From IMG/VR virus record IMGVR_UViG_2548876858_000013: a stretch of DNA of 32,484 bases; one strand, given 5' to 3'. This document shows positions 1,863 to 32,484 of the stretch, piece by piece. Position numbers and translations under genes: made by a program. The notes under the pieces are model-generated. The model worked only from the letters and a program-made list of their open reading frames with translations, ran no database searches and was not told the origin of the DNA. Source of the stretch: a virus (lineage: Duplodnaviria; Heunggongvirae; Uroviricota; Caudoviricetes). Numbering within the stretch: the stretch's first letter is position 1; each line of letters starts with the position of its first letter.

Positions 1863-1872
1863 GGTGGAAAGG

Positions 1873-2540: not shown

Positions 2541-2603
2541 GTAATTAACCAAAGTTTTTAACGCACTTAATCGTGCGGGGCTTCTTTTTGCCTGGAGAAA
2601 GTC

Positions 2604-2816: not shown

Positions 2817-2830
2817 CAGGAAAGTTGGAG

Positions 2831-6385: not shown

Positions 6386-6415
6386 AAAAAAACCACCCTG
6401 GCAGGTGGTTTTTTT
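6386..6415. terminator. Bidirectional intrinsic terminator-like hairpin
   Basis: AAAAAAACCACC / loop CTGGCA / GGTGGTTTTTTT: an A-tract and T-tract flanking a GC stem; 13 nt downstream of the minus-strand small ORF stop and about 260 nt downstream of gene A. Confidence 0.6.
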
Positions 6416-6427
6416 GTTTGAAGCATA

Positions 6428-6541
6428 CTAAAGAATAATACTTACATGGATATTACTGACGTTTACTGACAAACCACTTGGACTACCATATGGATAGCCA
6501 AAGAGGGCCAGAACGAGAATGCAGTAATAGCACTTCTTCAT
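6428..6541 (-). CDS. Small hydrophobic protein (37 aa), candidate small membrane peptide
   Basis: Minus-strand ORF MKKCYYCILVLALFGYPYGSPSGLSVNVSNIHVSIIL, translated by hand. Near-consensus RBS GGAGGAGAT immediately upstream of the ATG and a hairpin terminator just downstream. Below the 60-aa cut-off of the ORF track. Confidence 0.4.
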   Translation of the reverse strand: MKKCYYCILVLALFGYPYGSPSGLSVNVSNIHVSIIL

Positions 6542-7112
6542 ATCTCCTCCTGTAAGCAGAGGGCAATTTCCGCCGATATATGCGCTTCTGAGGCGGAGTT
6601 ACTATTTAGCGAAGTCTTGCCCTGAAATAATGCTCTGTTTAAACGCAAAGTGATCTGGCATATCACCGAACAGAGAGCCTGAACAACACAACATATAGTA
6701 TGTCGTTGTTTCTGGTTGCATTTTATGTTGTGTAATACTGGTTTTGCATCAAGGATGTTTGAGCTTTTTTTGATATAGCTCAAAGTAAAAAGCAGGGACT
6801 ACGGATGATAAGGTATTGAAAGCAATGTAAATTTTTTAAAGTTATTGGTGGCTAAAAAATGCACGGTTTCAATATGGCGGACTTAAATAAGCAATTAAAA
6901 AAGTCATAAATATCACTAAAATCATGGTGTTACGTTTTTTTGTGGGAGCTGCGGTGACGCTTAAGTTGATTTGTCATTAAATAAGCCGTGCATGCAACAA
7001 GTGAATGTTTTTGCATGCGTCGGGGATGCCCGTTCCAGCTGCTCGCGGTCAGAGCTGGTGCGGATCCATAGTATCTATGCAACTGCATTAAAACCGCCAC
7101 ATGAAGCGGGCG

Positions 7113-7131
7113 GGCGAGGCGGGGAAAGCAC
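7113..7131. other. cos site (P2-type 19-nt cohesive end GGCGAGGCGGGGAAAGCAC)
   Basis: Exact 19-mer that I recall as the P2 cohesive end and start of the P2 genome, followed here by TGCGCGCT as I recall for P2; sits in a GC-rich patch within otherwise AT-rich DNA between A and Q. Confidence 0.65.
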
Positions 7132-7355
7132 TGCGCGCTCCATTAACGACCATTACATAATACTATTAGCCTATGAATCGAGTCATGAGATGTTATCTTT
7201 ACGATTCAGGCGAGTGCTTTCGTTACGATGAGTTAGTTTAAGCACACTATCTGCACAAAAAATAATCTGTTGAAGCGATTCATCATTCCTAACGCTCTAG
7301 AGTCTTAAATAAAAATATGTAAAATGCGTAAAATTTTCTGAATTATGGATCAGCT

Positions 7356-8438
7356 ATGCTTGGAACTTCATCACAAAGAGCTATTTCAGTACAACATGTT
7401 GATTTAAATGTAAAGTGTTGGGTCGTTAGACCTGGGATTAAGTATAGATATTTTGCAGACTTCCTTGAACGCAATATGGTTGCTACTGCTCACTTGGATA
7501 GGTTAAGTCCAGATCAAATTGACTTTAATGATGAAATTAACCATGAAAATATTAATCAAAAGGTTGATGGGTTAGATACTATTGGTTCAAGAAATATTCA
7601 TACCCAAATTGAAAATTTCCTCATAGATATGCAGGTCGGTGATGTTGTTTTCACTTTGTCAGGTGATATGGTTGTTCCTGGAGTTATTGCATCTTCCGCG
7701 TATTTTGAGCGTGAATGTTTAGGTAATAATGAAGGGTTTCATGTAAGACGTAGAGTCACATGGGGAGAGCCAGTTCGCAGACGAGAGATTCCATTAGCTC
7801 TTCAGAAATCGTTTACTGCATACCAGACCGTATTCTCTTTGGGCGGGAAGTCAGAAGAAGTACTGCATTGGTTAATGTCATTCTTTATAACGGATAATAT
7901 TTTCTGTACTAGCTTAAGAGTCGAGCAAGCAGAAGCCATTCGGCATCATACTCTTAAGCAGCTGGCTGAGCTGGTCGATAGAGTGCAGGTACTTGCGCTA
8001 TTAATTGGCGAAGAGTTTGATGGCGAGTATACAAACGAAGTTGTTCAGTTTGAGATGGAAAGACTTTCTAATAATGGAGAGTTATCCTTGACTGCTCAAC
8101 AAATGTTGATGTCTCCGGGGGATGTTTGGCTACAATTTAAAACAAATAATAGAAAGGCCGGAATTGCGTTTATGTTAATTATGGGGGCCATTTTTAATCA
8201 TGATGTAGCCTTCGCTTCAACGGTTGATAATCGTATAAGTGAGGAACTTCGATCTCATATTGAAGGGAAAAAAGAGGTTGCAATGGATGGATTAAACTTT
8301 GATAGAGTTTCTCAAGTTCTAGAGTTGCGTTTAAAAAGACAAAATAGAGGCTTTGTTTCTGCTCGTCCAACGAACCGTGAGATCGGACAGGGGATCAATT
8401 TCCCTGAAGATGGTGATGCGAGGCATGCGAGTGACTAA
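7356..8438 (+). CDS. Hypothetical cargo protein, 360 aa, soluble; first gene of a two-gene operon
   Basis: Long ORF in AT-rich DNA; weak RBS (GGAT), so the true start could be downstream. No nucleotidyltransferase GS..DxD motif and no clear HEPN or PD-(D/E)xK motif seen by eye. Confidence 0.7.
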   Translation: MLGTSSQRAISVQHVDLNVKCWVVRPGIKYRYFADFLERNMVATAHLDRLSPDQIDFNDEINHENINQKVDGLDTIGSRNIHTQIENFLIDMQVGDVVFTLSGDMVVPGVIASSAYFERECLGNNEGFHVRRRVTWGEPVRRREIPLALQKSFTAYQTVFSLGGKSEEVLHWLMSFFITDNIFCTSLRVEQAEAIRHHTLKQLAELVDRVQVLALLIGEEFDGEYTNEVVQFEMERLSNNGELSLTAQQMLMSPGDVWLQFKTNNRKAGIAFMLIMGAIFNHDVAFASTVDNRISEELRSHIEGKKEVAMDGLNFDRVSQVLELRLKRQNRGFVSARPTNREIGQGINFPEDGDARHASD

Positions 8439-8440
8439 CT

Positions 8441-9130
8441 ATGAACTTTGAATTTGTAAAAGAACACTGGCTGATAATAGGCATGCTATTCATAGCATGT
8501 CTATTATTAATTTTAAAATTCAAAGATATTTACAGAACACACGATCAGTTTAATAACGTCGTGATGTCATTGTGCGCTGTTTTGACACTTGTGTGGGGAG
8601 GATATACTTTTGATGTTTTGCACCAAAGGGATAAGGCAGAAGCTGATCTTATAGAGTTAAGAAATAGAATTAGAAATACAGAATCGACATTTTTTAATGT
8701 TGACGTTAATGTTGTTAAAATCGATGATGTGTTTTATATAAAGCCTATTGTGACTATTAGGAATAACAGTAATGAGCGAATTTATGTGAAGCTTAATAAC
8801 AAGTCCCTTGCTGTTAGTCGTGTTTTATCGGCCGGTGCAAAGCAAGTCGCTACGGAAGTTTTTTATCCAAATTATTATGAGGAGTTGGCTGTTCTTAATG
8901 AAGAAAGTAGCTCGCAAGGAAAAGCTAAAAATATACCTTTATATGACATATCCGTTCCTATCTCTGCTGAAAGACGCTTGAACTATCTTGTTTCGACAAA
9001 AGAAAAAGGAATGTATTATGTAACATTTAGTGCTGAGGCAATGAACGAAGATGGCTCGCCTGTTTCTAAATACATAAATGGGAAAAAATCTATATGGTTT
9101 TCTTCTTCATATATTGAAGTTAAAGATTGA
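8441..9130 (+). CDS. Hypothetical cargo membrane protein, 229 aa, two N-terminal TM helices plus a beta-rich-looking soluble domain
   Basis: ATG 2 nt after the upstream stop (TAACTATG). Hydrophobic segments WLIIGMLFIACLLLIL and VVMSLCAVLTLVWGGYTF; the remainder is rich in alternating hydrophobic/polar stretches. AT-rich. Confidence 0.7.
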   Translation: MNFEFVKEHWLIIGMLFIACLLLILKFKDIYRTHDQFNNVVMSLCAVLTLVWGGYTFDVLHQRDKAEADLIELRNRIRNTESTFFNVDVNVVKIDDVFYIKPIVTIRNNSNERIYVKLNNKSLAVSRVLSAGAKQVATEVFYPNYYEELAVLNEESSSQGKAKNIPLYDISVPISAERRLNYLVSTKEKGMYYVTFSAEAMNEDGSPVSKYINGKKSIWFSSSYIEVKD

Positions 9131-9225
9131 ATTTCTATTAAACCATATAGTAATTGAAGGTGTTGGGGGTTAATCTTGCCTGGATTGCATAGAATCACGC
9201 CGCCTGGAGACGGCGCTAAGGGTAC

Positions 9226-10254
9226 TTAATTAGATTCTAGACTGTAATCTTTAAAGCGGATGACCTCCTGACCGAGCCAGCCGTTTATCTCGCGGATCCT
9301 GTCCTGTAACGGGATAAGCTCATTGCGGACAAAGACCTTTGCCACTTTCTCAATATCACCCAGCGACCCGACGTTCTCCGGCTTGCCGCCCATCAACTGA
9401 AAGGGGATGCGGTGCGCGTCCAGCAGGTCAGCGGCGCTGGCTTTTTTGATATTAAAAAAATCGTCCTTCGTTGCCACTTCACTGAGCGGGATAATTTTAA
9501 TGCCGTCGGCTTTCCCCTGTGGGGCATAGAGAAACAGATTTTTAAAGTTATTGCGGCCTTTCGACTTAACCATGTTTTCGCGAAGCATTTCGATATCGTT
9601 GCGATCCTGCACGGCATCGGTGACGTACATGATGTATCCGGCATGTGCGCCATTTTCGTAATACTTGCGGCGGAACAGCGTGGCCGACTCATTCAGCCAG
9701 GCAGAGTTAAGGGCGCTGAGATATTCCGGCAGGCCGTACAGCTCCTGATTAATATCCGGCTCCAGCAGGTGAAACACGGAGCCGGGCGCGAAGGCTGTCG
9801 GCTCGTTGAAGGACGGCACCCACCAGTAAACATCCTCTTCCACGCCACGGCGGGTATATTTTGCCGGTGAGGTTTCCAGTCTGATGACCTTACCGGTGGT
9901 GCTGTAACGCTTTTCCAGAAATGCATTACCGAACACCAGAAAATCCAGCACAAAGCGGCTGAAATCCTGCTGGGACAGCCACGGATGCGGGATAAATGTC
10001 GAGGCCAGAATATTGCGTTTGACGTAAATCGGGGAGCTGTGATGCACGGCAGCACGCAGGCTTTTTGCCAGACCGGTAAAGCTGATTGGTGGCTCATACC
10101 ATCTGCCGTTACTGATGCACTCGACATAATCCAGAATGTCACGGCGGTCGAGTACCGGCACAGGCTCGCCAAAGGTGAATGCCTCCATTTTCGGGGCGCT
10201 GGCGGTCATTTTTTTTGCCGCAGGTTGCGGTGTTTTCCCTTTTTTCTTGCTCAT
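9226..10254 (-). CDS. Q: Portal protein (P2 gpQ-like)
   Basis: 342-aa ORF, leftward, next to the terminase gene; matches P2 Q position and approximate length. Confidence 0.9.
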   Translation of the reverse strand: MSKKKGKTPQPAAKKMTASAPKMEAFTFGEPVPVLDRRDILDYVECISNGRWYEPPISFTGLAKSLRAAVHHSSPIYVKRNILASTFIPHPWLSQQDFSRFVLDFLVFGNAFLEKRYSTTGKVIRLETSPAKYTRRGVEEDVYWWVPSFNEPTAFAPGSVFHLLEPDINQELYGLPEYLSALNSAWLNESATLFRRKYYENGAHAGYIMYVTDAVQDRNDIEMLRENMVKSKGRNNFKNLFLYAPQGKADGIKIIPLSEVATKDDFFNIKKASAADLLDAHRIPFQLMGGKPENVGSLGDIEKVAKVFVRNELIPLQDRIREINGWLGQEVIRFKDYSLESN

Positions 10255-18226: not shown

Positions 18227-18260
18227 TTTTATCCAGGCAGAGGCTGATGCGCAATTAAGC

Positions 18261-18287
18261 ATTGAGCGGCCGTGCTGGTCGCTCAAT
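18261..18287. terminator. Stem-loop between gpS and the convergent cargo gene (possible terminator)
   Basis: 8-bp inverted repeat ATTGAGCG ... CGCTCAAT with an 11-nt loop, between two convergent stops; no strong U-tract. Confidence 0.3.
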
Positions 18288-18297
18288 ATTTAGAGGT

Positions 18298-19083
18298 TTA
18301 TGAGTGGTTTTTATTTGATGCTTTGTATTCTAAAACCTTCTTATTGGCGTAAAGGAATTTTGTATATGACAGGAATATAAGCAGACCTGAAATGAAATAG
18401 GTTAGGGATATTATTAATAATGTTTTTCTGTGGCTGTTATTATCTTTAATCTCCTGACTTAACCATTCGGAGTCCTCCTTGTTTAGCTGTAAGAGCTTAT
18501 TGCAGGCGATCTCGGGAAGTGTGTCTTTTATAAATACGTTTTGCAGACTCTTGCAATCGGCAAGGCTATAAGTTTTATTAAATTCAACCGTTTTATTTTT
18601 GAAGGATAAAAGAACTTTGTCACTATAAACATAGTACATCATATTTTTATATGGTATACCTATGGCATCCCTTACTATAGCGGATTGTTCATTGTGTATA
18701 TAACATGCGAAGAGAATATAAATAATACTGGCCAGAATTACAATTATTGTTTTAATTATGTGTGGTGGTTTTGTTATGTCACCCCAGATGCGAGTAAGGA
18801 AAAAATACGATGTTTTTAGTTTTCCATCAATCAGTCCCTGCTGTATCATTCTCACATTTTCAATGCCTGATACATTGATTCCGTTAATTATTTTAAATAG
18901 TTGAATGTCGCGCCACTCGCGGTCAAGTCTTTTTAATTTTTTGTCTGAATATCCAAAATTGAAATAATGTGCAATAAGCCTCATAAGGTTACTTTTACCA
19001 AAGCTAAAAAATGCTAATACTGCAAAGCTACAAAGGAAAAAAACGATTAGCCCCCACACATTAGTCACATTATAGCTGACCAT
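18298..19083 (-). CDS. Hypothetical cargo membrane protein, 261 aa, three predicted TM helices
   Basis: Strong RBS (AAGGAG six nt upstream of the ATG at 19081-19083); very AT-rich; hydrophobic segments near the N-terminus (VWGLIVFFLCSFAVLAFFSF), middle (IIKTIIVILASIIYILFACYI) and C-terminus (LLIISLTYFISGLLIFLSY). Sits at the S-V variable locus. Confidence 0.75.
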   Translation of the reverse strand: MVSYNVTNVWGLIVFFLCSFAVLAFFSFGKSNLMRLIAHYFNFGYSDKKLKRLDREWRDIQLFKIINGINVSGIENVRMIQQGLIDGKLKTSYFFLTRIWGDITKPPHIIKTIIVILASIIYILFACYIHNEQSAIVRDAIGIPYKNMMYYVYSDKVLLSFKNKTVEFNKTYSLADCKSLQNVFIKDTLPEIACNKLLQLNKEDSEWLSQEIKDNNSHRKTLLIISLTYFISGLLIFLSYTKFLYANKKVLEYKASNKNHS

Positions 19084-19166
19084 TACGCTCTCCTTGAATG
19101 TTGTCTGGTAGTTCTACAAATGAATCCAGATAGCATAACTTTTATATATTGTGCAATCTCACATGC
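19084..19166. promoter_or_regulatory. Probable late promoter region upstream of V, shared with the divergent cargo gene
   Basis: Position-based inference; 83-bp AT-rich divergent intergenic region. Confidence 0.3.
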
Positions 19167-19802
19167 ATGAACACTCTCGCAAATATTCAGGAACTCGCGC
19201 GCGCACTGCGCAACATGATTCGCACCGGCATTATCGTCGAAACCGACCTTAACGCCGGTCGCTGCCGCGTGCAGACCGGCGGCATGTGCACCGACTGGCT
19301 TCAGTGGCTGACCCATCGCGCCGGGCGTTCGCGCACATGGTGGGCACCTTCCGTGGGGGAACAGGTGCTGATTCTGGCCGTGGGTGGTGAACTCGACACG
19401 GCGTTCGTTCTGCCGGGGATTTATTCCGGCGATAACCCCGCGCCGTCTGCGTCGGCGGATGCCCTGCATATCCGTTTCCCTGACGGGGCGGTGATTGAGT
19501 ATGAACCTGAAACCAGCGCGCTCACGGTAAGCGGAGTTAAAACGGCCAGCGTGACGGCTTCTGATTCTGTTACTGCCACGGTGCCGGTGGTCATGGTGAA
19601 AGCATCAACCCGCATCACCCTGGACACACCGGAGGTGGTCTGCACCAACAGGCTGATTACCGGCACGCTGGAAGTGCAGAAGGGCGGGACGATGCGCGGC
19701 AACATTGAACACACCGGCGGTGAGCTCTCATCAAACGGTAAGGTACTGCATACCCATAAACACCCCGGCGACAGCGGCGGCACAACCGGGGGACCTCTAT
19801 GA
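19167..19802 (+). CDS. V: Baseplate assembly/spike protein (P2 gpV-like)
   Basis: ATG at 19167 gives 211 aa (recalled P2 gpV length); the ORF track start at 19149 is a TTG. Confidence 0.85.
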   Translation: MNTLANIQELARALRNMIRTGIIVETDLNAGRCRVQTGGMCTDWLQWLTHRAGRSRTWWAPSVGEQVLILAVGGELDTAFVLPGIYSGDNPAPSASADALHIRFPDGAVIEYEPETSALTVSGVKTASVTASDSVTATVPVVMVKASTRITLDTPEVVCTNRLITGTLEVQKGGTMRGNIEHTGGELSSNGKVLHTHKHPGDSGGTTGGPL

Positions 19803-20146
19803 CTGCGCGTTATCTCGGAATGAATCGCAGTGATGGCCTGACTGTCACTGACCTTGAGCATATCAGCCAGAGTATCGGCGATATCCTGCGCACACCGGTC
19901 GGCTCACGGGTGATGCGTCGTGATTACGGCTCGTTGCTGGCGTCAATGATTGACCAGCCGCAGACCCCGGCGCTTGAGTTGCAGATTAAGGTCGCCTGTT
20001 ACATGGCGGTGCTGAAATGGGAACCCCGAGTCACCCTGTCATCCGTCACCACGGTGCGCAGTTTTGACGGGCGAATGACGGTCACGTTAACCGGTCAGCA
20101 CAACGACACCGGCCAGCCACTTTCGTTAACCATCCCTGTGAGTTGA
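19799..20146 (+). CDS. W: Baseplate protein (P2 gpW-like)
   Basis: 115 aa, recalled P2 gpW length; start overlaps the V stop. Confidence 0.85.
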   Translation: MTARYLGMNRSDGLTVTDLEHISQSIGDILRTPVGSRVMRRDYGSLLASMIDQPQTPALELQIKVACYMAVLKWEPRVTLSSVTTVRSFDGRMTVTLTGQHNDTGQPLSLTIPVS

Positions 20147-20150
20147 AACC

Positions 20151-21059
20151 ATGCCGATTATCGACCTGAACCAGCTACCCGCACCGGATGTGGTCGAGGA
20201 GCTGGACTTTGAAACCATTCTCGCCGAACGCAAGGCGACACTGATTTCCCTTTACCCGGAAGACCAGCAGGAGGCGGTCGCCCGTACCCTGACGCTGGAA
20301 TCTGAGCCTCTCGTCAAACTGCTGGAGGAAAATGCTTATCGTGAGCTTATCTGGCGTCAGCGTGTGAATGAGGCCGCACGGGCGGTGATGCTGGCCTGTG
20401 CCGCCGGTAATGACCTTGATGTGATTGGTGCCAATTACAACACCACGCGCCTGATTATCACCCCGGCAGATGATTCGACCCTCCCGCCGACACCGGCCGT
20501 GATGGAATCTGACACCGATTATCGTCTGCGTATTCAGCAGGCGTTTGAAGGTTTAAGCGTCGCCGGGTCGGTGGGGGCCTATCAGTATCATGGTCGCAGT
20601 GCTGACGGGCGTGTCGCGGATATCTCTGTTACCAGTCCGTCTCCTGCCTGCGTCACCATCTCCGTGCTGTCACGTGAAAATAACGGTGTCGCATCCGAAG
20701 ACCTGCTGGCTGTGGTGCGTAACGCCCTTAATGGTGAGGACGTCAGGCCGGTGGCCGACCGCGTGACCGTGCAGTCTGCCGCCATCGTTGAATACCAGAT
20801 AAACGCCACGCTTTACCTTTACCCTGGTCCCGAAAGCGAACCCATCCGCGCTGCCGCTGTGAAAAAGCTGGAAGCGTATATCACGGCACAGCACCGGCTG
20901 GGGCGCGACATCCGTCTGTCTGCCATTTATGCCGCTTTGCATGTGGAAGGCGTGCAGCGTGTCGAACTGGCTGCACCGCTGGCCGATATCGTGCTTAACA
21001 GCACGCAGGCGTCTTTCTGTACCGAATACCGCGTCGTGACCGGAGGCTCGGATGAGTGA
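20151..21059 (+). CDS. J: Baseplate protein (P2 gpJ-like)
   Basis: 302 aa, recalled P2 gpJ length. Confidence 0.9.
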   Translation: MPIIDLNQLPAPDVVEELDFETILAERKATLISLYPEDQQEAVARTLTLESEPLVKLLEENAYRELIWRQRVNEAARAVMLACAAGNDLDVIGANYNTTRLIITPADDSTLPPTPAVMESDTDYRLRIQQAFEGLSVAGSVGAYQYHGRSADGRVADISVTSPSPACVTISVLSRENNGVASEDLLAVVRNALNGEDVRPVADRVTVQSAAIVEYQINATLYLYPGPESEPIRAAAVKKLEAYITAQHRLGRDIRLSAIYAALHVEGVQRVELAAPLADIVLNSTQASFCTEYRVVTGGSDE

Positions 21060-21582
21060 TTCGCGACTGCTGCCGACCGGCTCATCACCGCTTGAGGTCG
21101 CCGCCGCAAAAGCCTGTGCGGAAATTGAAAAAACGCCGGTCAGTATTCGTGAGCTGTGGAACCCGGATACCTGTCCGGCAAATCTGCTGCCGTGGCTGGC
21201 GTGGGCGTTTTCGGTCGACAGGTGGGATGAGAAGTGGCCGGAAGCGACAAAACGCGCCGTTATCCGCGATGCGTATTTCATTCATTGTCATAAAGGCACT
21301 GTCGGTGCAATCCGGCGTGTGGTGGAGCCGCTCGGCTATCTCATCAACGTGACGGAGTGGTGGGAAAACAGTGACCCGCCCGGCACCTTCCGGCTTGATA
21401 TTGGTGTACTGGAAAGTGGCATCACAGAGGCAATGTATCAGGAAATGGAACGGCTGATTGCTGATGCCAAACCTGCAAGCCGCCACCTTATTGGCCTGAA
21501 CATTACCCGGGACATTCCCGGCTACCTGTTCGCCGGTGGTGTGGCTTACGACGGCGATGTAATTACGGTTTACCCCGGATAA
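21052..21582 (+). CDS. I: Tail/baseplate protein (P2 gpI-like)
   Basis: 176 aa, recalled P2 gpI length; start overlaps the J stop. Confidence 0.85.
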   Translation: MSDSRLLPTGSSPLEVAAAKACAEIEKTPVSIRELWNPDTCPANLLPWLAWAFSVDRWDEKWPEATKRAVIRDAYFIHCHKGTVGAIRRVVEPLGYLINVTEWWENSDPPGTFRLDIGVLESGITEAMYQEMERLIADAKPASRHLIGLNITRDIPGYLFAGGVAYDGDVITVYPG

Positions 21583-21592
21583 GTGAGGAATA

Positions 21593-23722
21593 ATGAGCAC
21601 AAAATTCAGAACCGTTATCACCACTGCCGGTGCAGCAAAGCTGGCAGCGGCAACCGCGCCGGGAGGGCGGAAGGTCAACATTACCACGATGGCCGTCGGG
21701 GATGGCGGTGGTAAATTGCCTGTCCCGGATGCCGGACAGACCGGGCTTATCCATGAAGTCTGGCGACATACGCTGAACAAAATCAGCCAGGACAAACGAA
21801 ACAGTAATTATATTATCGCAGAGCTGGTTATTCCGCCGGAGGTGGGTGGTTTCTGGATGCGTGAGCTTGGCCTGTACGATGATGCGGGAACGTTAATTGC
21901 CGTGGCGAACATGGCCGAAAGTTATAAACCTGCCCTTGCCGAAGGCTCAGGGCGTTCGCAGACCTGCCGCATGGTCATCATCGTCAGCAGTGTGGCCTCA
22001 GTGGTGCTGACCATTGACACCACAACGGTGATGGCGACGCAGGATTACGTTGATGACAAAATTGCAGAGCATGAACAGTCACGACGTCACCCGGACGCCT
22101 CGCTGACCGCAAAAGGTTTTACTCAGTTAAGCAATGCGACCAACAGCACGTCTGAAACACTGGCCGCAACGCCGAAAGCGGTAAAGGCCGCCTATGACCT
22201 GGCTAACGGGAAATATACTGCGCAGGATGCCACCACAGCGCGAAAAGGTCTTGTCCAGCTCAGTAGTGCCACCAACAGCACGTCTGAAACGCTCGCCGCA
22301 ACACCAAAAGCGGTAAAGGCCGCGTATGACCTTGCTAACGGGAAATACACTGCACAGGACGCCACCACAGCGCGAAAAGGTCTTGTCCAGCTCAGTAGCG
22401 TCACCAACAGCGATTCTGAAATGCTTGCGGCAACGCCAAAGGCGGTTAAGACAGCGTATGACCTTGCTAATGGGAAATACACTGCACAGGATGCCACCAC
22501 GGCGCGGAAAGGTCTTGTTCAGCTCAGTAGCGCCACCAACAGCGATTCTGAAACGCTGGCTGCAACGCCAAAGGCGGTTAAGACAGCGTATGACCTTGCT
22601 AACGGGAAATACACTGCACAGGACGCCACCACAGCGAGAAAAGGCCTTGTCCAGCTCAGTAGCGCCACCAACAGCGATTCTGATACGCTGGCCGCAACAC
22701 CAAAAGCGGTGAGGTCTGCCTATGACAATGCTGAGAAACGTCTTCAGAAAGATCAGAACGGCGCGGATATTCCTGATAAAAGATTATTCCTGCGCAATAT
22801 TGGAGCAACAAATTCAACAACCATGTCTTTTAGTGGTGGTACAGGATGGTTCAGGCTGGCAACTGTAACCATGCCACAGGCCAGTTCCGTGGTTTACATA
22901 AGTCTGATTGGTGGTGCCGGGTATAATGTTAACTCCCCTATGCAGGCTGGTATATCTGAACTTGTTCTTCGTGCGGGAAATGGAAATCCAAAAGGTCTTA
23001 CTGGTGCGTTATGGCGACGGACCTCGGTTGGATTTACTAATTTTGCATGGGTGAATACATCCGGTGATACCTATGATGTTTATGTTGAAATAGGTAATTA
23101 CGCCACAGGTGTTAATATTCAGTGGGATTATACCAGTAACGCCAGCGTAACGATTCATACATCACCAACTTATACAGCGAATAAACCAACAGGCCTGACA
23201 GATGGAACTGTATATGTAATTTACAGTTCGCACATTAAACCGACTGCTGCTGATGTTGGGGCGTTATCATTATCTGGAGGTCAATTGAATGGTGCACTGG
23301 GCATCGGTACATCCAGTGCTCTTGGCGGTAACTCGATTGTTTTGGGTGATAATGACACGGGCTTTAAACAAAATGGCGACGGTAATCTGGATGTTTATGC
23401 TAATAACGTCCATGTTATGCGCTTTGTCTCCGGTAGCATTCAAAGTAATAAAACCATAAATATTACGGGGCGTGTTAATCCCTCGGATTACGGTAACTTT
23501 GATTCCCGCTATGTCCGGGATATCCGGCTTGGTGGTGCTGCCACATACAAACCTGCGAACAATGGCATGACATGGACACATCAGGCACCATCCGGGTGTG
23601 TATATTCCGGCATTATTGTTCAGGATACCGGCTCAAACTCTGCCGATAACATTGGTGGCGTATATTACAGGCCGGTGCAGAAATACATTAACGGGACATG
23701 GTATAACGTGGTGCAGGTATAA
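21593..23722 (+). CDS. H: Tail fiber protein (P2 gpH-like) with internal tandem repeats
   Basis: 709 aa after the baseplate genes; conserved N-terminal region, a central block of 44-aa tandem repeats, and a more AT-rich C-terminal region. Confidence 0.9.
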   Translation: MSTKFRTVITTAGAAKLAAATAPGGRKVNITTMAVGDGGGKLPVPDAGQTGLIHEVWRHTLNKISQDKRNSNYIIAELVIPPEVGGFWMRELGLYDDAGTLIAVANMAESYKPALAEGSGRSQTCRMVIIVSSVASVVLTIDTTTVMATQDYVDDKIAEHEQSRRHPDASLTAKGFTQLSNATNSTSETLAATPKAVKAAYDLANGKYTAQDATTARKGLVQLSSATNSTSETLAATPKAVKAAYDLANGKYTAQDATTARKGLVQLSSVTNSDSEMLAATPKAVKTAYDLANGKYTAQDATTARKGLVQLSSATNSDSETLAATPKAVKTAYDLANGKYTAQDATTARKGLVQLSSATNSDSDTLAATPKAVRSAYDNAEKRLQKDQNGADIPDKRLFLRNIGATNSTTMSFSGGTGWFRLATVTMPQASSVVYISLIGGAGYNVNSPMQAGISELVLRAGNGNPKGLTGALWRRTSVGFTNFAWVNTSGDTYDVYVEIGNYATGVNIQWDYTSNASVTIHTSPTYTANKPTGLTDGTVYVIYSSHIKPTAADVGALSLSGGQLNGALGIGTSSALGGNSIVLGDNDTGFKQNGDGNLDVYANNVHVMRFVSGSIQSNKTINITGRVNPSDYGNFDSRYVRDIRLGGAATYKPANNGMTWTHQAPSGCVYSGIIVQDTGSNSADNIGGVYYRPVQKYINGTWYNVVQV
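22113..22722 (+). repeat. In-frame tandem repeat inside the tail fiber gene, about 4.6 copies of a 132-bp (44-aa) unit
   Basis: Repeated peptide KGLVQLSSATNS(T/D)SETLAATPKAVKAAYDLANGKYTAQDATTAR; copies begin near 22113, 22245, 22377, 22509 and 22641 with a few substitutions. Confidence 0.85.
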
Positions 23723-23725
23723 TTT

Positions 23726-24253
23726 ATGCAGCATTTAAAAAATATTACGGCGGGTAATCCAAAAACGGTTGAACAATATCAATTAACAAAGGACTTTGAT
23801 GTTGTCTGGTTTTTTTCAGAAGATGGTAAGAACTGGTACGAAGAACAAAAGTATTTTGCTGATGACACGATAAAAATAGCGTACGACAAAGATAATATCA
23901 TCCGCTATGTGGAAAAGGATGTGACAGCTATCAGACCAGATGGATTAAGTGTTGTTGAAGTGGCGGATATTACTGCTAACCGACGGGCGGACATTTCAGG
24001 GAACTGGATGTTTAAAGACGGCACAGTGATTAAACGAATTTATACGGCGGAGGAATTGCAGCAGCAGGCAGAAAATCGGAAAGCCAGACTTCTTACAGAT
24101 GCTGAATACGTGATTTTGCCGTTGGAGCGCGCGGTCAGGCTGAACATAGCAACAGAGGAGGAGCGCACACGGTTGGAGGCTTGGGAACGCTACAGCGTTC
24201 TGGTCAGTCGTGTGGATCCTGCGAATCCTGAATGGCCGGAAATGCCGCAATAA
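23726..24253 (+). CDS. G: Tail fiber assembly protein (P2 gpG-like)
   Basis: 175 aa, recalled P2 gpG length, directly after H. Confidence 0.85.
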
Positions 24254-24310
24254 GTTCTATGAGCTCTGGTGTGAGCTGACATATCTATGGCAAAGAGTAA
24301 AGCCTAATCT

Positions 24311-24342
24311 GACAGTCCGCTCTGTGCCATGAGCGGACTGTC
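24311..24342. terminator. Perfect 12-bp inverted repeat stem-loop downstream of G (possible terminator)
   Basis: GACAGTCCGCTC / 8-nt loop / GAGCGGACTGTC; no clear U-tract, so terminator efficiency is uncertain. Confidence 0.4.
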
Positions 24343-24537
24343 AATAAACAGATTTACGTGTAAATCTTGAAGCTATACATATTTACTTTCAATGATAAAT
24401 AAAAGAACCACCCCAAAATCACTGAAAGTATATTTTAACTAACCACCTGCAACTACTAACATTAATTTCACTCAACCTCAAAGAGTCGTAATTAAAATGA
24501 TATGTATAGCAATTTGCCTCGATACGAATCATATGAA

Positions 24538-25236
24538 TTATATTTTTCCATGCTTTTCACCGTCAAATCGAATCATGCTAGGATCAAGAAAATAAATCAA
24601 ATCAATTAACGCATGTTGTATTCTGATTAGCCTTTCTTTATAAGGCTCGATATTTTTTGTCATATTTATCACTTCATTGTTTAAATCTAAAAAAAATGGT
24701 TCATTGACAAAGCAATTTTCCTTTGTGAAACCGCCGTAACCTATGCAATCAAATCCAGCATCTGTTGATATCAACATCTTTTCCGCAATAGCTCTCTGCT
24801 CTCCTATGAAAAACATAAAATACTGACCAAAGGCGTCTGTTTGGATTAATGAGTTAATATTGTTCTGTAATCTAATAAACTCCCTCATTTTTTTATTTTT
24901 TTCTAGACTAAGGTATTGAATGTCTATGCGGGCAGCTTCTGTCCATGCAAAGAACTGGGAAAAAAGAAAAACCGTATTTTTGATAACATAATCTTGTTGG
25001 CGCTTACTCCCATTATGATAAAACTCTTCAATAAACCCTAATTCTAATATGTTATAAATGCGGCTTTGTAAGTCTGAAGCTGAGCGAATTAACGGTTCAA
25101 TATAGTACTGATGTTTTCTCCTTACATCCAGTGTTTCATTGAGCTTGTTTATTCTATTCTGATTATAGGTAGATATAGCAATAGAGATTATAGATATTGC
25201 ACCACCAATAAGGCTTGAAATTAATGCCACACTCAT
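24538..25236 (-). CDS. Hypothetical cargo protein, 232 aa, N-terminal TM helix plus soluble domain
   Basis: RBS AAGGA seven nt upstream of the ATG at 25234-25236; very AT-rich; N-terminal hydrophobic segment VALISSLIGGAISIISIAISTY; at the G-FI variable locus. Confidence 0.7.
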   Translation of the reverse strand: MSVALISSLIGGAISIISIAISTYNQNRINKLNETLDVRRKHQYYIEPLIRSASDLQSRIYNILELGFIEEFYHNGSKRQQDYVIKNTVFLFSQFFAWTEAARIDIQYLSLEKNKKMREFIRLQNNINSLIQTDAFGQYFMFFIGEQRAIAEKMLISTDAGFDCIGYGGFTKENCFVNEPFFLDLNNEVINMTKNIEPYKERLIRIQHALIDLIYFLDPSMIRFDGEKHGKI

Positions 25237-26058
25237 CTAAAAGTCCTTTGATTTTCTTGGTTAACAAAATGACATGGTTTTATTTAATGTCGCAGCAACT
25301 TAATAATACACCATGATATGATTATTATGGTGTGATTTTTCGCATCTGTAATCCATTACAAACAGATGCAAGGTATAACTTGTCTATTTTTAGTCAGAAA
25401 ATTCGTAAACATCCAAAGTAGCCTCATCAAACTCTTAAAATTCTATACATTTGAGTGTAAAGATTTTAAATTCAGCTGCATGGTATCGACTCATGTTTAT
25501 TATATCTTTTATTTGTAATTAAAGGTTGCATTATTTTCGATAGTAAATCATCGCAAGATTGAAATATGATTTCACTTGATGCAATGTTTCATGTGGCCCA
25601 GCGATTTGAGTTACACCCAGCTGTACGGGTAATATAAATCAAATTGATGAACTTTTGATACACTCCTCTCTCCTCATTACTTTATGTTTTTGCTCTCAAA
25701 AATATCTTGCTCTCTGAAAATTATTCTTTAAGTTCAAAGTCGAGGACTGCATGAGTGTTAGATACAAAGCTAATATGTTGAAATGTTTTTCATCTCCCCA
25801 TAACGGCATTATTATCTAAAATATTTACACAAATATAGGATTACCCCTTTAACGTAAACTAGGTATCAAGTTAACACCATTATATATATCATAAACATGA
25901 TATTTTGTATATTTTTATCATTTAGCCTTGATTGTACAGGGCGTACTCTCAACGAAGTAGGGAAAGTCTGTTTTTCGCTCAAAACTGGCTGTCAGATTTG
26001 ATAGCATTTGGGCTATGTAAATTGTCAGTTGGAGAATGAGGGAGTAAAAATCAGGACA

Positions 26059-26085
26059 GGCGGGCGAATTGCCCGCCTTTTCTTT
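26059..26085 (+). terminator. Intrinsic terminator-like hairpin upstream of FI
   Basis: GGCGGGC / loop GAATT / GCCCGCC followed directly by TTTTCTTT on the plus strand. Confidence 0.5.
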
Positions 26086-26181
26086 ATCTGTTGTTTCATC
26101 CACTGACCAGCCAGGTCAAATAGCGTCTCATGTACTACCCAACGGAAAATAGTTGCACCCATTAACCACGGAGTTAAACGG
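26086..26181 (+). promoter_or_regulatory. Probable late promoter region upstream of FI, inferred by position
   Basis: Region between the terminator and the FI start. One-mismatch candidate to the recalled TGT-N12-ACA late-promoter site (TGT at 26092-26094, CCA twelve nt later); not conclusive. Confidence 0.3.
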
Positions 26182-27372
26182 ATGAGTGACTATCATCACG
26201 GCGTGCAGGTGCTGGAGATTAACGACGGCACCCGCGTCATTTCCACTGTATCCACGGCCATTGTCGGCATGGTCTGCACGGCCAGCGATGCGGATGCGGA
26301 AATCTTCCCCCTCAATAAACCGGTGCTGATTACCAATGTGCAGAGCGCAATTGCAAAGGCCGGTAAAAAAGGCACGCTGGCGGCATCGTTGCAGGCTATC
26401 GCCGACCAGTCAAAACCGGTCACCGTTGTTGTGCGCGTGGAAGACGGCACCGGCGACGACGAAGAAACGAAACTCGCGCAGACCGTTTCCAATATCATCG
26501 GCACCACCGACGAAAACGGTCAGTACACCGGACTGAAAGCCCTGATGGGGGCGGAGTCGGTTACCGGCGTTAAACCACGCATTCTCGGCGTACCGGGGCT
26601 GGACACCAAAGAGGTTGCCGTCGCACTGGCATCGGTATGCCAGGAACTGAATGCATTCGGGTATATCAGCGCATGGGGCTGTAAAACCATTTCCGAGGCA
26701 AAAGCCTACCGTCAGAATTTCAGCCAGCGTGAGCTGATGGTCATCTGGCCGGATTTCCTCGCATGGGATACGGTTACCAGTACCACCGCCACCGCGTATG
26801 CCACCGCCCGTGCGCTGGGTCTGCGCGCTAAAATCGACCAGGAGCAGGGCTGGCATAAAACGCTGTCCAACGTCGGGGTGAACGGTGTTACCGGCATCAG
26901 TGCATCCGTCTTCTGGGATTTGCAGAAGCCCGGCACTGATGCTGACCTGCTTAACGAGTCAGGCGTCACTACGCTGATTCGCCGCGACGGTTTCCGCTTC
27001 TGGGGTAACCGTACCTGCTCTGATGATCCGCTGTTCCTCTTTGAAAGTTACACCCGCACCGCGCAGGTACTGGCCGACACGATGGCTGAGGCGCACATGT
27101 GGGCTATTGATAAGCCCATCACCGCAACGCTGATTCGCGACATCATTGACGGCATCAATGCCAAATTCCGTGAACTGAAAAACAACGGTTATATCGTGGA
27201 TGGCACATGCTGGTTCAGCGAAGAATCCAACGATGCGGAAACCCTCAAGGCCGGCAAACTGTATATCGACTACGACTATACACCGGTGCCTCCTCTTGAA
27301 AATCTGACCCTGCGCCAGCGTATTACTTCCAGATACCTGGCAAGTCTGGTCACTTCGGTTAACAGCAATTAA
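26182..27372 (+). CDS. FI: Tail sheath protein (P2 gpFI-like)
   Basis: 396 aa, recalled P2 FI length. Confidence 0.9.
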   Translation: MSDYHHGVQVLEINDGTRVISTVSTAIVGMVCTASDADAEIFPLNKPVLITNVQSAIAKAGKKGTLAASLQAIADQSKPVTVVVRVEDGTGDDEETKLAQTVSNIIGTTDENGQYTGLKALMGAESVTGVKPRILGVPGLDTKEVAVALASVCQELNAFGYISAWGCKTISEAKAYRQNFSQRELMVIWPDFLAWDTVTSTTATAYATARALGLRAKIDQEQGWHKTLSNVGVNGVTGISASVFWDLQKPGTDADLLNESGVTTLIRRDGFRFWGNRTCSDDPLFLFESYTRTAQVLADTMAEAHMWAIDKPITATLIRDIIDGINAKFRELKNNGYIVDGTCWFSEESNDAETLKAGKLYIDYDYTPVPPLENLTLRQRITSRYLASLVTSVNSN

Positions 27373-30841: not shown

Positions 30842-31321
30842 ATGATGCTCGCGTTAGGTATGTTTGTTTTTATGCGCCAGACGTTGCCACACCAGACCAT
30901 GCAGCGTGAATCAGATTATCGCTGGCCGTCAAATTCCCGTATCGGTAAACGGGATGCCTTTCAGTTTCTCGGTGTGGGTGAGGAAAACATCACGCTTGCC
31001 GGTGTGCTTTATCCCGAACTGACCGGCGGGAAGCTGACGATGACCACGCTCAGGCTGATGGCAGAGGAAGGCCGGGCGTGGCCGTTGCTGGATGGCACCG
31101 GCATGATTTACGGCATGTATGTCATCAGCAGGGTGAGTGAAACAGGGAGTATTTTCTTTGCAGACGGCACACCCCGAAAAATTGATTTTACGCTGTCGCT
31201 CACCCGCGTTGATGAATCACTGGCCGCGCTTTATGGCGATATCGGTAAACAGGCGGAATCGCTCATCGGTAAGGCTGGCAGTATGGCGACTAAATTCACG
31301 GGTATGACGGGGGCGGGATAA
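30842..31321 (+). CDS. U: Tail protein (P2 gpU-like)
   Basis: 159 aa, recalled P2 gpU length. Confidence 0.85.
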   Translation: MMLALGMFVFMRQTLPHQTMQRESDYRWPSNSRIGKRDAFQFLGVGEENITLAGVLYPELTGGKLTMTTLRLMAEEGRAWPLLDGTGMIYGMYVISRVSETGSIFFADGTPRKIDFTLSLTRVDESLAALYGDIGKQAESLIGKAGSMATKFTGMTGAG

Positions 31322-32484
31322 TGCTGGATGCGCTGACATTTGATGCAGGCAGCACGCTGACGCCGGATTACATGCTGATGCTCGACAGTAGGGATATTAC
31401 CGGCAATATCAGCGACCGTCTGATGAGCATGACCCTGACGGATAACCGGGGCTTTGAGGCTGACCAGCTTGATATTGAACTGAACGATGCCGACGGGCAG
31501 GTCGGGCTGCCGGTTCGTGGCGCTGTCCTGACGGTGTATATCGGCTGGAAAGGTTTTGCCCTGGTATGCAAAGGGAAATTCACCGTTGATGAGGTTGAAC
31601 ACAGGGGCGCGCCGGATGTGGTCACTATCCGCGCCCTGAGTGCAGATTTTCGCGGGACGCTCAATTCCCGCCGTGAAGGCTCCTGGCATGACACCACGCT
31701 CGGTGCGATTGTTGAGGCGATAGCCTCCCGTAACAGGCTGGAAGCCAGTGTCGCTCCGTCACTGGCCGGAATTAAAATCCCGCACATCGACCAGTCGCAG
31801 GAGTCTGATGCAAAATTCCTGACCCGCCTTGCTGAACGCAACGGCGGTGAGGTGTCGGTAAAAATGGGAAAATTGTTGTTTCTCAAAGCGGGGCAGGGGG
31901 TGACGGCCAGCGGTAAAAAAATCCCGCAGATTACCATCGCCCGCAGCGACGGCGACCGTCATCATTTTGCGATTGCTGACCGTGGAGCCTACACCGGCGT
32001 AACGGCAAAGTGGTTACACACCAAAGACCCGAAGCCACAAAAGCAGAAGGTAAAACTGAAACGCAAAAAGAAAGAGAAACACCTGCGCGCACTGGAGCAC
32101 CCGAAAGCGAAACCGGTCACGCAGAAGAAAGCGCCAAAAGTACCGGAAGCGCGCGAAGGTGAATACATGGCCGGTGAGGATGACAATGTTTTTGCCCTGA
32201 CCACGGTATATGCCACGAAAGCGCAGGCCATGCGCGCCGCTCAGGCGAAGTGGGATAAACTGCAACGGGGCGTTGCGGAGTTCTCCATCAGCCTGGCTAC
32301 CGGTCGGGCAGATATTTACACGGAAACACCGGTTAAGGTGTCAGGCTTTAAGCGCGTCATAGACGAGCAGGACTGGACCATAACTAAGGTGACACATTTT
32401 CTGAATAATAGCGGCTTCACGACGTCCTTAGAGCTTGAGGTCAGGCTTTCTGATGTGGAGTACGAAACAGAAGATGATGAGTGA
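31321..32484 (+). CDS. D: Late tail protein (P2 gpD-like)
   Basis: 387 aa, recalled P2 gpD length; start overlaps the U stop; window ends at its stop codon. Confidence 0.9.
   Translation: MLDALTFDAGSTLTPDYMLMLDSRDITGNISDRLMSMTLTDNRGFEADQLDIELNDADGQVGLPVRGAVLTVYIGWKGFALVCKGKFTVDEVEHRGAPDVVTIRALSADFRGTLNSRREGSWHDTTLGAIVEAIASRNRLEASVAPSLAGIKIPHIDQSQESDAKFLTRLAERNGGEVSVKMGKLLFLKAGQGVTASGKKIPQITIARSDGDRHHFAIADRGAYTGVTAKWLHTKDPKPQKQKVKLKRKKKEKHLRALEHPKAKPVTQKKAPKVPEAREGEYMAGEDDNVFALTTVYATKAQAMRAAQAKWDKLQRGVAEFSISLATGRADIYTETPVKVSGFKRVIDEQDWTITKVTHFLNNSGFTTSLELEVRLSDVEYETEDDE

Follow-up and report, generated by a model that had tools for sequence, protein, structure and literature searches.

What do the three variable loci of a P2-type prophage carry, and does a membrane protein at each of them mean that they act together at the cell envelope? 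The window analyzed here is a 32,484-nucleotide stretch of viral DNA (Caudoviricetes; IMGVR_UViG_2548876858_000013). Synteny with P2 and composition show that a P2-type prophage fills it from int to D. The initial annotation had described AT-rich insertions at A-Q, S-V, and G-FI, each encoding a protein with predicted transmembrane (TM) helices, and had suggested a multi-layer accessory arsenal. The three P2 variable regions were already established (PMC3091744), and they are known hotspots for anti-phage cargo (PMC3091744; PMC9122126; PMC9519451; PMC13586616). Rousset (2022) treated the P2 slots as defence hotspots (PMC9122126), Vassallo (2022) described the fun locus as a second hotspot (PMC9519451), and a defence hotspot "within the tail genes" has also been described (PMC13586616).

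Three AT-rich slots in a P2 backbone

The AT-rich blocks proved to be as described. The GC content is 0.372 at A-Q (7140-9225), 0.345 at S-V (18227-19148), and 0.339 at G-FI (24254-26181), against 0.536 for the window outside these dips. Across 238 intervals of 700 bp, the backbone has a mean GC of 0.538 (sd 0.051) and a minimum of 0.404. The cargo ORFs were found at the coordinates given in the initial annotation, and all four (360-aa, 229-aa, orf30, and 232-aa) are intact (Table 1). The range 18298-25236 singled out in that annotation is mainly the ordinary V-W-J-I-H-G tail operon. TM segments were called with Kyte-Doolittle 19-residue scans.

Table 1. Features at the variable loci, in window positions
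Feature	Position	Strand	Remarks
P2-type cos site	7084-7139	.	matches the cosR/cosL junction of P2 directly
19-nt cohesive end GGCGAGGCGGGGAAAGCAC	7113-7131		inside the cos site
360-aa DUF8426 (PF28530) protein	7356-8438	+	predicted soluble; proposed sensor
229-aa partner	8441-9130	+	TM helices 9-27 and 40-57; C-terminal fold unassigned; proposed membrane effector
P2 orf30, 261-aa 3-TM inner-membrane protein	18298-19083	-	in the S-V slot, antisense; 33% GC
Z-region cassette, left inverted repeat	24226-24342	.	takes in the hairpin downstream of G
232-aa protein, P2-EC58 "ORF1, putative lysogenic protein"	24538-25236	-	one N-terminal TM helix
AT-rich non-coding leader	25237-25961	.	precedes the 232-aa ORF; belongs to the mobile cassette
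Z-region cassette, right inverted repeat	25962-26056	.	shortly before the FI promoter region

A two-gene module between cos and Q

The cos site parts an empty A-to-cos segment from an occupied cos-to-Q segment. Among 5426 E. coli genomes, 2129 carry a 60-bp piece of it, at up to five places per genome. A tin/old position for the A-Q cargo was considered and rejected, since the cos site puts the cargo in the cos-to-Q segment. No ORF in the A-to-cos segment (6126-7112) is longer than 86 aa. A 37-aa ORF there (6428-6541) had been put forward as a possible fourth membrane-active product, a proposal that found no support; its hydropathy maximum is 1.23, and the scan supported no TM helix. The ORF and the block around it alike share about 97% identity with a P2-like phage of Salmonella, and just three nucleotide differences fall within the ORF.

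The first cargo gene of the cos-Q segment encodes a protein without a clear TM segment (hydropathy maximum, 1.57). Its AlphaFold2 model is confident and globular with two domains, of which the N-terminal one is predicted to be PUA-like (EVE/YTH-type) and the C-terminal one helical. The family PF28530 is on record for a cluster representative 100% identical to the protein. The second gene starts 3 nt past the stop of the first, and its product is the sole membrane protein of the A-Q locus. Thus, the claim of a TM protein at every locus holds for the 229-aa protein, Orf30, and the 232-aa protein, but not for the DUF8426 protein. In the 229-aa protein, the two helices score 2.33 and 1.78, and the topology is ambiguous. 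Searches of Pfam, PADLOC, and NCBIfam gave it no match that reached or approached a family threshold; NCBIfam matches far below the cut-offs were to TsiR (E 0.0015) and a Bf21-family immunity protein (E 0.62). Directly after the DUF8426 gene, Citrobacter, Serratia, and Pseudomonas carry homologues of this partner with 79%, 43%, and 44% identity, respectively. The pair is kept in four genera, with the reading frames adjacent or nearly so, and is rare in E. coli (7 of 5426 genomes).

Several known proteins resemble the DUF8426 protein. Its N-terminal half (residues 20-206) matches the HMM of the PADLOC candidate PDC-S02 (E 2.4e-12). PDC-S02 is listed under one name and read as a single-gene candidate, whereas a conserved 2-TM partner is present here. 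The N-terminal predicted fold matches modified-base readers of the EVE/YTH type, a type whose EVE domains are known in defence contexts (PMC7641849). Unlike the EVE/YTH/ASCH PUA-like readers compared (PH1033, VcaM4I, YTHDC1, THYN1, and the McrB N-domain), the 360-aa protein has no sequence-level Pfam match and no fused nuclease, and its output would have to come from a separate membrane protein. Metis offers a precedent for PUA-like sensors triggering abortive defence (bioRxiv 10.1101/2025.11.05.686725). In type I Metis (MisA/MisB), a modified mononucleotide is sensed by the PUA-like domain of MisA; in type II (MisB/MisC), the 3-TM MisC is both sensor and effector. However, the cos-Q module has neither a calcineurin-like phosphoesterase domain nor a HAD phosphatase gene, its partner has two TM helices instead of three, and the likeness is not one of demonstrated sequence relationship. 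The PUA-like domain may bind a modified base or nucleotide, either in hypermodified phage DNA or as methylated nucleotides freed by phage breakdown of the host genome. The ligand-bound protein would then activate the co-translated 2-TM partner, which would damage the membrane and abort the infection.

The resident orf30 of P2 in the S-V slot

The S-V gene was examined as a new insertion, a status that was rejected. It is the resident orf30 of P2, with 97% nucleotide identity to AF063097 (9439-10224), where it is annotated "Orf30, nonessential". The gene matches phrog_2407 (E 2.6e-146), and there is no material difference from P2 orf30 (AAD03281; phrog_2407) in gene, slot, antisense orientation, or length. 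The function of Orf30 is listed as unknown (PMC3091744). Its TM segments (9-27, 109-127, and 221-239) score 2.15-2.63, and the charge distribution fits an N-out/C-in topology. The family comprises 44 representative clusters; the DLQLF(K/R)..NGINV motif, Cys177/Cys194, and the 3-TM layout are conserved in it.

The Orf30 family is small and diverges very fast, yet it stays in the S-V slot across P2-like lineages. In fact, a homologue of only 24% identity occupies the same antisense slot in a lineage with 70-83% identity in the R, V, W, J, and N proteins. This could mean that the family is locked in the slot because it serves P2's own cycle instead of being exchangeable cargo, by modulating lysis or injection or by excluding superinfecting P2 relatives. 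The host range and frequency fit such a role: close clusters (81-94% identity) bear only E. coli names, the exception being a 38%-identical Enterobacter relative, about 460 of 5426 E. coli genomes carry the gene, and near-identical copies are found in P2 and other P2-like phages. We nevertheless regard a role in the P2 cycle as quite unlikely. The gene is non-essential in P2, its AT-richness and antisense orientation to the late operons are typical of lysogen-expressed morons, and members of the family are also found outside prophage tail regions.

No link of Orf30 to any defence family or model was detected. Functional analogues exist among Sie-type inner-membrane proteins such as Kunado (YmfE) of prophage e14. 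Kunado is a prophage-borne, AT-rich, H-NS-silenced, multi-TM protein with a proposed block of DNA entry (bioRxiv 10.64898/2026.09.05.749240), but it has no homology to Orf30 (hhalign probability, 0.1%). The S-V slot of BL21 carries an AT-rich multi-TM DUF6216 gene, which is bound by H-NS and becomes derepressed in hns/stpA mutants (bioRxiv 10.64898/2026.09.05.749240). The similarity of its product to Orf30 is marginal (hhalign E 1.5e-3, probability 17%; BLASTP E 0.13). Extrapolating from a different prophage, H-NS silencing of the AT-rich cargo is likely here as well. With a basic loop that is likely cytoplasmic and a disulfide-bonded loop that is likely periplasmic, Orf30 may be an exclusion-type protein acting at the envelope against incoming phage.

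The Z-region cassette in the G-FI slot

The G-FI cargo is the same cassette as the Z-region ORF1 of P2-EC58 (AJ512683; phrog_5606). The identity of 98% over 1988 bp takes in the inverted repeats, the promoter annotation, and the 232-aa ORF, with no material difference. The "lysogenic protein" of that record is a mere label from the original deposit. The annotated left and right inverted repeats (record positions 3-115 and 1743-1833) map to 24226-24338 and 25966-26056, and the arms of repeat pair I1 lie at 24306-24342 and 25962-25998. About 940 nt of the AT-rich block (24254-26181) are non-coding. Neither strand of the leader contains an ORF of at least 60 aa (maximum, 50 aa), and the leader had no Rfam match above threshold and matched no other phage record; AJ512683 annotates a promoter (-35/-10) and an RBS in it.

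Such stretches (25237-26181 and also 6126-7112), together with AT-richness, which predicts H-NS silencing (bioRxiv 10.64898/2026.09.05.749240), would fit cargo DNA that is silenced or decaying and has no function at present. A cassette copy outside the P2 context speaks otherwise. It is 87% identical overall, but the CDS keeps 94% identity against 85% for the leader, and second codon positions vary least, with 6 changes versus 16 and 18 at the others. Given also the four intact ORFs and families kept across genera with invariant motifs, decay is highly improbable.

The single TM segment of the 232-aa protein (residues 3-21) scores 2.35. It is followed by an extended helical stalk and by a conserved helical domain that is probably cytoplasmic. 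All 38 aligned family members match the PADLOC RT-associated TM model, RTasTM (best E 9.8e-11), over this conserved domain, although the protein's own match is weak (E 1.1e-6) and covers part of the profile only. In six divergent contexts, homologues are stand-alone genes beside SIR2-HerA, RelE/MqsA, PIN, or PARIS genes, and neither there nor here does an RT or nitrilase gene adjoin. The family has distant homology to the TM protein that accompanies RT-nitrilase, but its members always stand alone, in defence or toxin-antitoxin (TA) islets. RT-nitrilase systems (UG1/DRT type 1 and UG5-large) have a TM component that is of similar size (about 230 aa), is likewise found in P2/P4 hotspots (PMC9122126, PMC9226505), and shares the one N-terminal TM helix of Rousset's "RT-nitrilase + 1TM"; the differences are the missing neighbor genes and the distant similarity. 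This TM component is required for UG5-large defence, according to a passage citing Rousset (PMC9226505). The 232-aa protein, borne on an inverted-repeat-bounded mobile cassette, would work without a reverse transcriptase, as a stand-alone membrane-anchored abortive-infection effector.

Independence and possible roles of the cargos

With all three slots occupied and a TM protein in each, the loci could form a single coordinated, co-selected envelope arsenal, as originally suggested. This is very unlikely. No complete E. coli genome among 5426 holds all three cargos, and the closest hold two, so the cargos are not inherited together. Frequencies span a range of about 60-fold, with 7 genomes for the cos-Q pair versus about 413 for the G-FI cargo and about 460 for orf30. 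Orf30 and the 232-aa family, compared directly, are unrelated. The 229-aa protein differs in architecture and has no family match in common with either, so the membrane proteins of the three slots appear unrelated, the 229-aa protein being set apart by architecture and family matches only. Rapid independent swapping at P2 hotspots (PMC13586616) also argues against coordination. The pattern of a TM protein in all three slots is real, though largely ordinary: it was noticed after the fact, and orf30 alone is so frequent that the three events are not independent draws. Two of the cargos are already-catalogued genes, and the third is a rare two-gene module that resembles a sensor of modified nucleotides joined to a membrane partner.

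The cargo could also consist of morons with host- or phage-benefit functions unrelated to phage defence, such as membrane stress tolerance, bacteriocin immunity, or virulence or colonisation factors. P2 hotspot cargo does include plasmid-partition systems and a cytolethal distending toxin (Rousset et al.), Orf30 and the 229-aa protein lack a defence-family match, and the sub-threshold NCBIfam matches of the latter are to immunity-type proteins. We consider this unlikely in view of the PDC-S02 and RTasTM matches, an EVE/YTH-type fold typical of modification-sensing defence proteins (PMC7641849), and the defence or TA neighbors of the 232-aa family. Furthermore, unknown genes in satellite and phage hotspots have often been validated, as tested for P4 loci (PMC13586616).

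From the slots, gene identities, family distributions, predicted folds, TM segments, and contexts observed here, we infer ligand, activation, membrane damage, and exclusion as outlined above. The evidence supports reading the cargo as accessory genes of the P2 variable loci that were acquired horizontally and are non-essential, and anti-phage roles of these particular genes are plausible. That each of the three classical slots carries an independent, seemingly unrelated accessory module with a membrane-anchored component, functioning in the ways proposed, is an explanation whose chances we judge to be about even.

Composition and variable slots of the prophage

The ORF map and comparison with the annotated P2 genome place the window in the P2 family (Peduovirus). 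Gene A is followed by Q/P and then by the capsid, lysis and tail genes up to D. The backbone has a GC content of 53.6%, and its 700-bp windows (n = 238) have a mean GC of 0.538 with a standard deviation of 0.051 and a minimum of 0.404. The initial annotation reported AT-rich blocks at the A-Q, S-V and G-FI positions. Since all three fall far under the backbone windows, well outside backbone variation, this compositional claim is real. GC also falls, to 0.40-0.48, at 22600-24250, over the C-terminal part of the tail-fibre gene H and the assembly gene G, which points to a mosaic module for host range that is separate from the backbone.

Features of the prophage and its three variable slots
Feature	Coordinates	Strand	GC	Remark
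int	1-996	-		ORF map and P2 comparison
A	3807-6125			ORF map and P2 comparison
37-aa ORF	6428-6541			
P2 cohesive-end sequence	7113-7131			within conserved cos region 7084-7139
AT-rich block, A-Q	7140-9225		0.372	
DUF8426 gene, 360 aa	7356-8438	+		
2-TM partner gene, 229 aa	8441-9130	+		
AT-rich block, S-V	18227-19148		0.345	
orf30, 261 aa	18298-19083	-		
ORF of 128 aa	19083-19469	-		antisense, overlaps gene V
ORF of 146 aa	19421-19861	-		antisense, overlaps gene V
Inverted repeats of AJ512683	24226-24338 and 25966-26056			
AT-rich block, G-FI	24254-26181		0.339	
Inverted-repeat pair I1, arms	24306-24342 and 25962-25998			
232-aa ORF	24538-25236	-		
Terminator-like hairpin	26058-26078	+		
D	31321-32484			ORF map and P2 comparison

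P2-like phages carry horizontally acquired genes at the TO-region, at the Z-region and at orf30 (PMC3091744). Rousset et al. identified A-Q as their defence hotspot (PMC9122126), and Vassallo et al. described a second one at the fun locus (PMC9519451). Because these variable regions and hotspots were already published, the framework of the initial annotation is established knowledge. The A-Q and G-FI slots hold nothing that resembles old, tin or fun(Z), the reference cargo of P2, in sequence. Phage records cover at most 29% of 6000-9300, with the matching parts in the flanks. Most of the Z block is covered by AJ512683 only; complete P2-like genomes match its flanks alone (25-26% coverage). Promoter and terminator counts near the A-Q and G-FI cargo are close to shuffle expectations and so carry no information, and Rfam gave no match in the whole window. 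Searches of Pfam and NCBIfam with the four cargo proteins found nothing at or near the threshold of any family, and the Pfam families SLATT_1-5 of pore-forming effectors gave no match to them at E up to 1.

Membrane character of the encoded proteins

A TM protein had been proposed for each slot, and this holds for one protein at every locus. In a Kyte-Doolittle scan of 19 residues, the 229-aa protein of the A-Q cargo has two N-terminal TM segments (residues 9-27, score 2.33, and 40-57, score 1.78), Orf30 in the S-V slot has three (2.15-2.63), and the 232-aa G-FI protein has a single N-terminal one (2.35). It does not hold for the 360-aa A-Q protein. Its hydropathy maximum is 1.57 and its AlphaFold2 model is globular with two domains; having no clear TM segment, it is probably not a membrane protein. 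The 37-aa peptide proposed as a fourth membrane-active product lacks TM-grade hydropathy (maximum 1.23). Its ORF lies in a block (~6240-6840) with ~97% identity to a P2-like phage of Salmonella, in the ORF as well as around it; the ORF itself has three nucleotide differences, too few for a coding test. The 37-aa peptide was rejected as a membrane-active product on both grounds.

A DUF8426 protein and its membrane partner between cos and Q

The cohesive end marks the cargo (7356-9130) as lying between cos and Q. The segment from A to cos (6126-7112), which is the classical tin/old position, contains no ORF exceeding 86 aa. Thus cos divides the A-Q hotspot into two sub-slots: the A-to-cos side of ~1 kb with 40.6% GC, and the cos-to-Q side, which carries the cargo and lies at the left end once the genome is packaged. 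The cargo is rare, being found in seven of 5426 E. coli genomes and absent from every record of the phage collection.

The two cargo genes form an operon, with 2 nt between the first stop codon and the second gene. The 360-aa product of the first gene belongs to DUF8426 (PF28530), as given by the Pfam identifier of a 100%-identical cluster representative and by the RefSeq annotation of the same protein. Its N-terminal half only (residues 20-206) matches the PADLOC model PDC-S02 (E 2.4e-12), which we take from the 'S' in its name to be a single-gene candidate. The locus differs from this reading in that a homologous 2-TM gene follows the DUF8426 gene in E. coli and also directly downstream in Citrobacter (79% identity), Serratia (43%) and Pseudomonas (44%). 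This conserved adjacency makes the pair, rather than a single gene, the functional unit. E. coli Ec-U9-2 is among the seven genomes carrying the pair; there, genes annotated as HTH-domain and reverse-transcriptase (RT) family lie ~1.3 kb upstream of the pair (locus L004, 599-1835). They may be a retron, and two systems may be stacked at that locus.

The N-terminal domain of the 360-aa protein is predicted to be a PUA-like beta-barrel of the EVE/YTH type. It shares this modelled fold with EVE, YTH and ASCH readers but not their sequence profiles, as no Pfam EVE, YTH or ASCH family matched at E up to 1. Seven residues are invariant in the protein family (W22, Y30, F36, H46, F99, W136 and W172), and they are candidates for an aromatic cage that would bind a modified base. 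In the proposed mechanism, an EVE/YTH-type protein that reads modified bases or nucleotides would gate a membrane effector. A comparable logic is known from Metis, in which PUA-like domains sense m6dAMP and trigger abortive defence (bioRxiv 10.1101/2025.11.05.686725). The proposed logic would be that of Metis or of type IV restriction, but the parts are entirely different. Both the calcineurin-like phosphoesterase domain of MisA and the HAD phosphatase gene misB are absent here: the cos-Q cargo has two genes in all, neither of them HAD, and Pfam gave nothing for their products besides two DUF matches below threshold, both with the 229-aa protein. Membership in Metis was therefore rejected on composition, and the missing components make the cos-Q module an analogue of Metis instead.

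A mobile Z-region cassette at G-FI

The G-FI block is 98.0% identical to AJ512683 over the 1988 bp of that record, which make up most of the block. AJ512683 is described as 'P2-EC58 proviral Z-region, ORF1 putative lysogenic protein' (phrog_5606), and its annotated features are a promoter, an RBS and an inverted repeat on the left and on the right. The inverted repeats were also recovered independently as pair I1. Among 5426 genomes, 413 have 80% or more of the block. A copy of 24272-25995 with 87% identity occurs outside any P2 tail region in E. coli 21AR0807, so the unit bounded by the inverted repeats is mobile as a cassette. That copy (NZ_CP195483.1, 2094411-2099125) lies between ImmA/IrrE-type and LprI-family genes and includes the inner parts of the inverted repeats. 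The coding sequences of the two copies are 94% identical, with 16, 6 and 18 differences at codon positions 1, 2 and 3.

The 232-aa ORF is preceded by an AT-rich non-coding stretch of ~940 nt (25237-26181), which also travels with the cassette outside P2 and whose ORFs all fall short of 60 aa. Two identities were considered for this leader, a DRT-style ncRNA and a pseudogene remnant of an RT, and both were rejected for lack of evidence. A permissive Rfam scan of 24200-26250 gave sub-threshold chance matches alone, the 725-nt leader is less conserved between the two copies than the coding sequence (85%), and no record of the phage collection matches it except AJ512683. It may be a long regulatory leader, an H-NS nucleation site or a gene remnant. 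Just beyond the right inverted repeat and upstream of FI, there is a strong hairpin of terminator type, AGGCGGGCGAATTGCCCGCCT, with a T-run behind it.

The 232-aa protein belongs to a family of at least 228 members across Proteobacteria without a Pfam domain. Alignment of 38 members revealed 22 invariant residues, which lie in the motifs EPL..A.DLQSR.YN, AQ.FAWTE..R, F.GEQRAIGE and LDP..R. All 38 match the PADLOC model RTasTM (best E 9.8e-11), which we assume to represent the TM protein of the UG1 and UG5-large RT-nitrilase systems. The protein of the window matches it at E 1.1e-6, with residues 69-205 aligned to positions 84-213 of the 229 in the profile. Defence by UG5-large depends on its TM protein (PMC9226505; PMC9122126).

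The likeness to RT-nitrilase systems (UG1/UG5-large, DRT class 3) ends at the TM profile, as the adjacent RT-nitrilase gene is absent. No RT gene lies beside the 232-aa gene, the cassette has no other ORF of at least 60 aa, and the genes of six divergent homologues are all stand-alone, with no RT next to them. Because it is encoded without the defining partner, the protein was not filed as a member of these systems. We read it as a stand-alone relative of their membrane component. Neighbours of the homologues include SIR2-HerA, RelE/MqsA and PIN toxin-antitoxin (TA) modules, or PARIS and an integrase in a P2/186-like prophage. In Lonsdalea (1715-5729 of locus L024), the homologue is directly downstream of the prophage integrase and adjoins a PARIS-like pair (AAA_15 and DUF4435), an arrangement resembling the minor 'int-att' hotspot described for P2. 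In three related metagenome-assembled genomes (loci L009, L025 and L026), homologues occupy a small variable islet, between hemB (ALAD) and an acyl-CoA dehydrogenase gene, that also holds PIN-type TA modules.

A divergent protein family locked to the S-V slot

The S-V gene had been taken for an insertion. It is P2's own orf30, 97% identical at the nucleotide level to P2 (AF063097, 9439-10224), where it is annotated as 'Orf30, nonessential'. The 261-aa product, encoded antisense between gpS and gpV, matches phrog_2407 over its full length (E 2.6e-146), and the gene is found in ~460 of 5426 complete E. coli genomes. Two antisense ORFs, 128 and 146 aa long, overlap with gene V where the DNA is GC-rich; both are very likely spurious and no extension of the orf30 unit.

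Only five clusters of Orf30 relatives came out of a word-indexed search over 5.8 billion proteins. An exhaustive search with an HMMER profile over 1.84 billion representatives gave 44 clusters, many of them full-length (250-270 aa). The 3-TM layout is kept in 24 aligned full-length relatives with 17-33% identity to Orf30. The family has a DLQLF(K/R)..NG(I/V)NV...DA motif between TM1 and TM2, and near-invariant C177 and C194 between TM2 and TM3. The first loop is basic (14 K+R vs 7 D+E), as is the C-tail (5 vs 1), which suggests an N-out/C-in topology with the loop of the Cys pair in the periplasm.

The slot of another P2-like lineage holds P0194, an antisense-encoded divergent Orf30 relative (24% identity, 34.5% GC). 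The R, V, W, J and N proteins of that lineage are 70-83% identical to those of the window, and S is 50% identical. In P2-like prophages other than that of the window, very divergent AT-rich multi-TM genes, 24% identical or barely alignable, are antisense in the S-V slot at loci L020 (6001-6771) and L027 (25115-25921; BL21(DE3)). DUF6216 (PF19723) matches nine of the 24 relatives (best E 8.7e-7) and does not match Orf30 of the window in Pfam at E up to 0.1. In the P2-like remnant of BL21(DE3), this slot is taken, in the orientation of orf30, by a gene for a 'DUF6216 family protein'. The product aligns marginally to the Orf30 profile, in the region of the two cysteines (hhalign E 1.5e-3, probability 17%; BLASTP E 0.13). 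The gene is reported to have an H-NS ChIP peak and to be derepressed in hns/stpA mutants (bioRxiv 10.64898/2026.09.05.749240). PADLOC defence models gave no match to the Orf30 family, and homology of Orf30 to YmfE/Kunado was rejected after hhalign with the Orf30 profile (probability 0.1%). Since the family is slot-locked, though very rapidly diverging, the content of the S-V slot is not random cargo. Its hyper-divergence within one slot fits an interaction surface under diversifying pressure, or an arms-race interface.

Probable independent exchange of the three cargos

The three loci had been proposed to form a multi-layer arsenal acting at the cell envelope. Coordination of this kind found no support. 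When complete E. coli genomes were searched with an 18-kb query across the three loci, none had the full set of cargos; the best matches carry either orf30 and the Z cassette or the A-Q cargo and orf30. The genome frequencies of the cargos differ ~60-fold. Comparison of Orf30 with the 232-aa family showed no relationship, and kinship between them was rejected. The 229-aa protein has its two TM helices plus a separate C-terminal domain, and no family match in common with either. Rapid independent modular swapping has been described (PMC13586616), and the pattern fits such swapping rather than a co-selected arsenal.

Significance

The initial annotation thus stands for the AT-rich cargo and the TM proteins, but not for the 360-aa and 37-aa products as membrane proteins or for orf30 as an insertion. 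Its interpretation stands for accessory genes in known defence hotspots, with links to defence families for two of the three, but not for their coordination. Judged from sequence, anti-phage roles of these genes are plausible. Two further proposals, that the cos-Q module is an undescribed abortive-infection system and, separately, that the 232-aa family is an autonomous single-gene defence, are possible but rather doubtful.

The finding is mostly ordinary. The pattern as a whole contributes little: earlier work covers the variable regions of P2 and their use as anti-phage hotspots well, and databases already contained two of the three genes (P2 orf30 and P2-EC58 ORF1). Its value is in three testable leads on uncharacterised families. 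The rare sensor-like protein of predicted EVE/YTH fold, with its conserved 2-TM partner, would extend the theme of modified-nucleotide sensing in defence. The slot-locked, hyper-divergent membrane-protein family in the S-V slot of P2-like phages is another lead. The widespread stand-alone relative of the RT-nitrilase TM protein could clarify the role of that component in DRT1/UG5 systems. If the 232-aa family is autonomous, the TM 'accessory' of RT-nitrilase (DRT1/UG5) systems would be an independent effector module, able to act without a reverse transcriptase.
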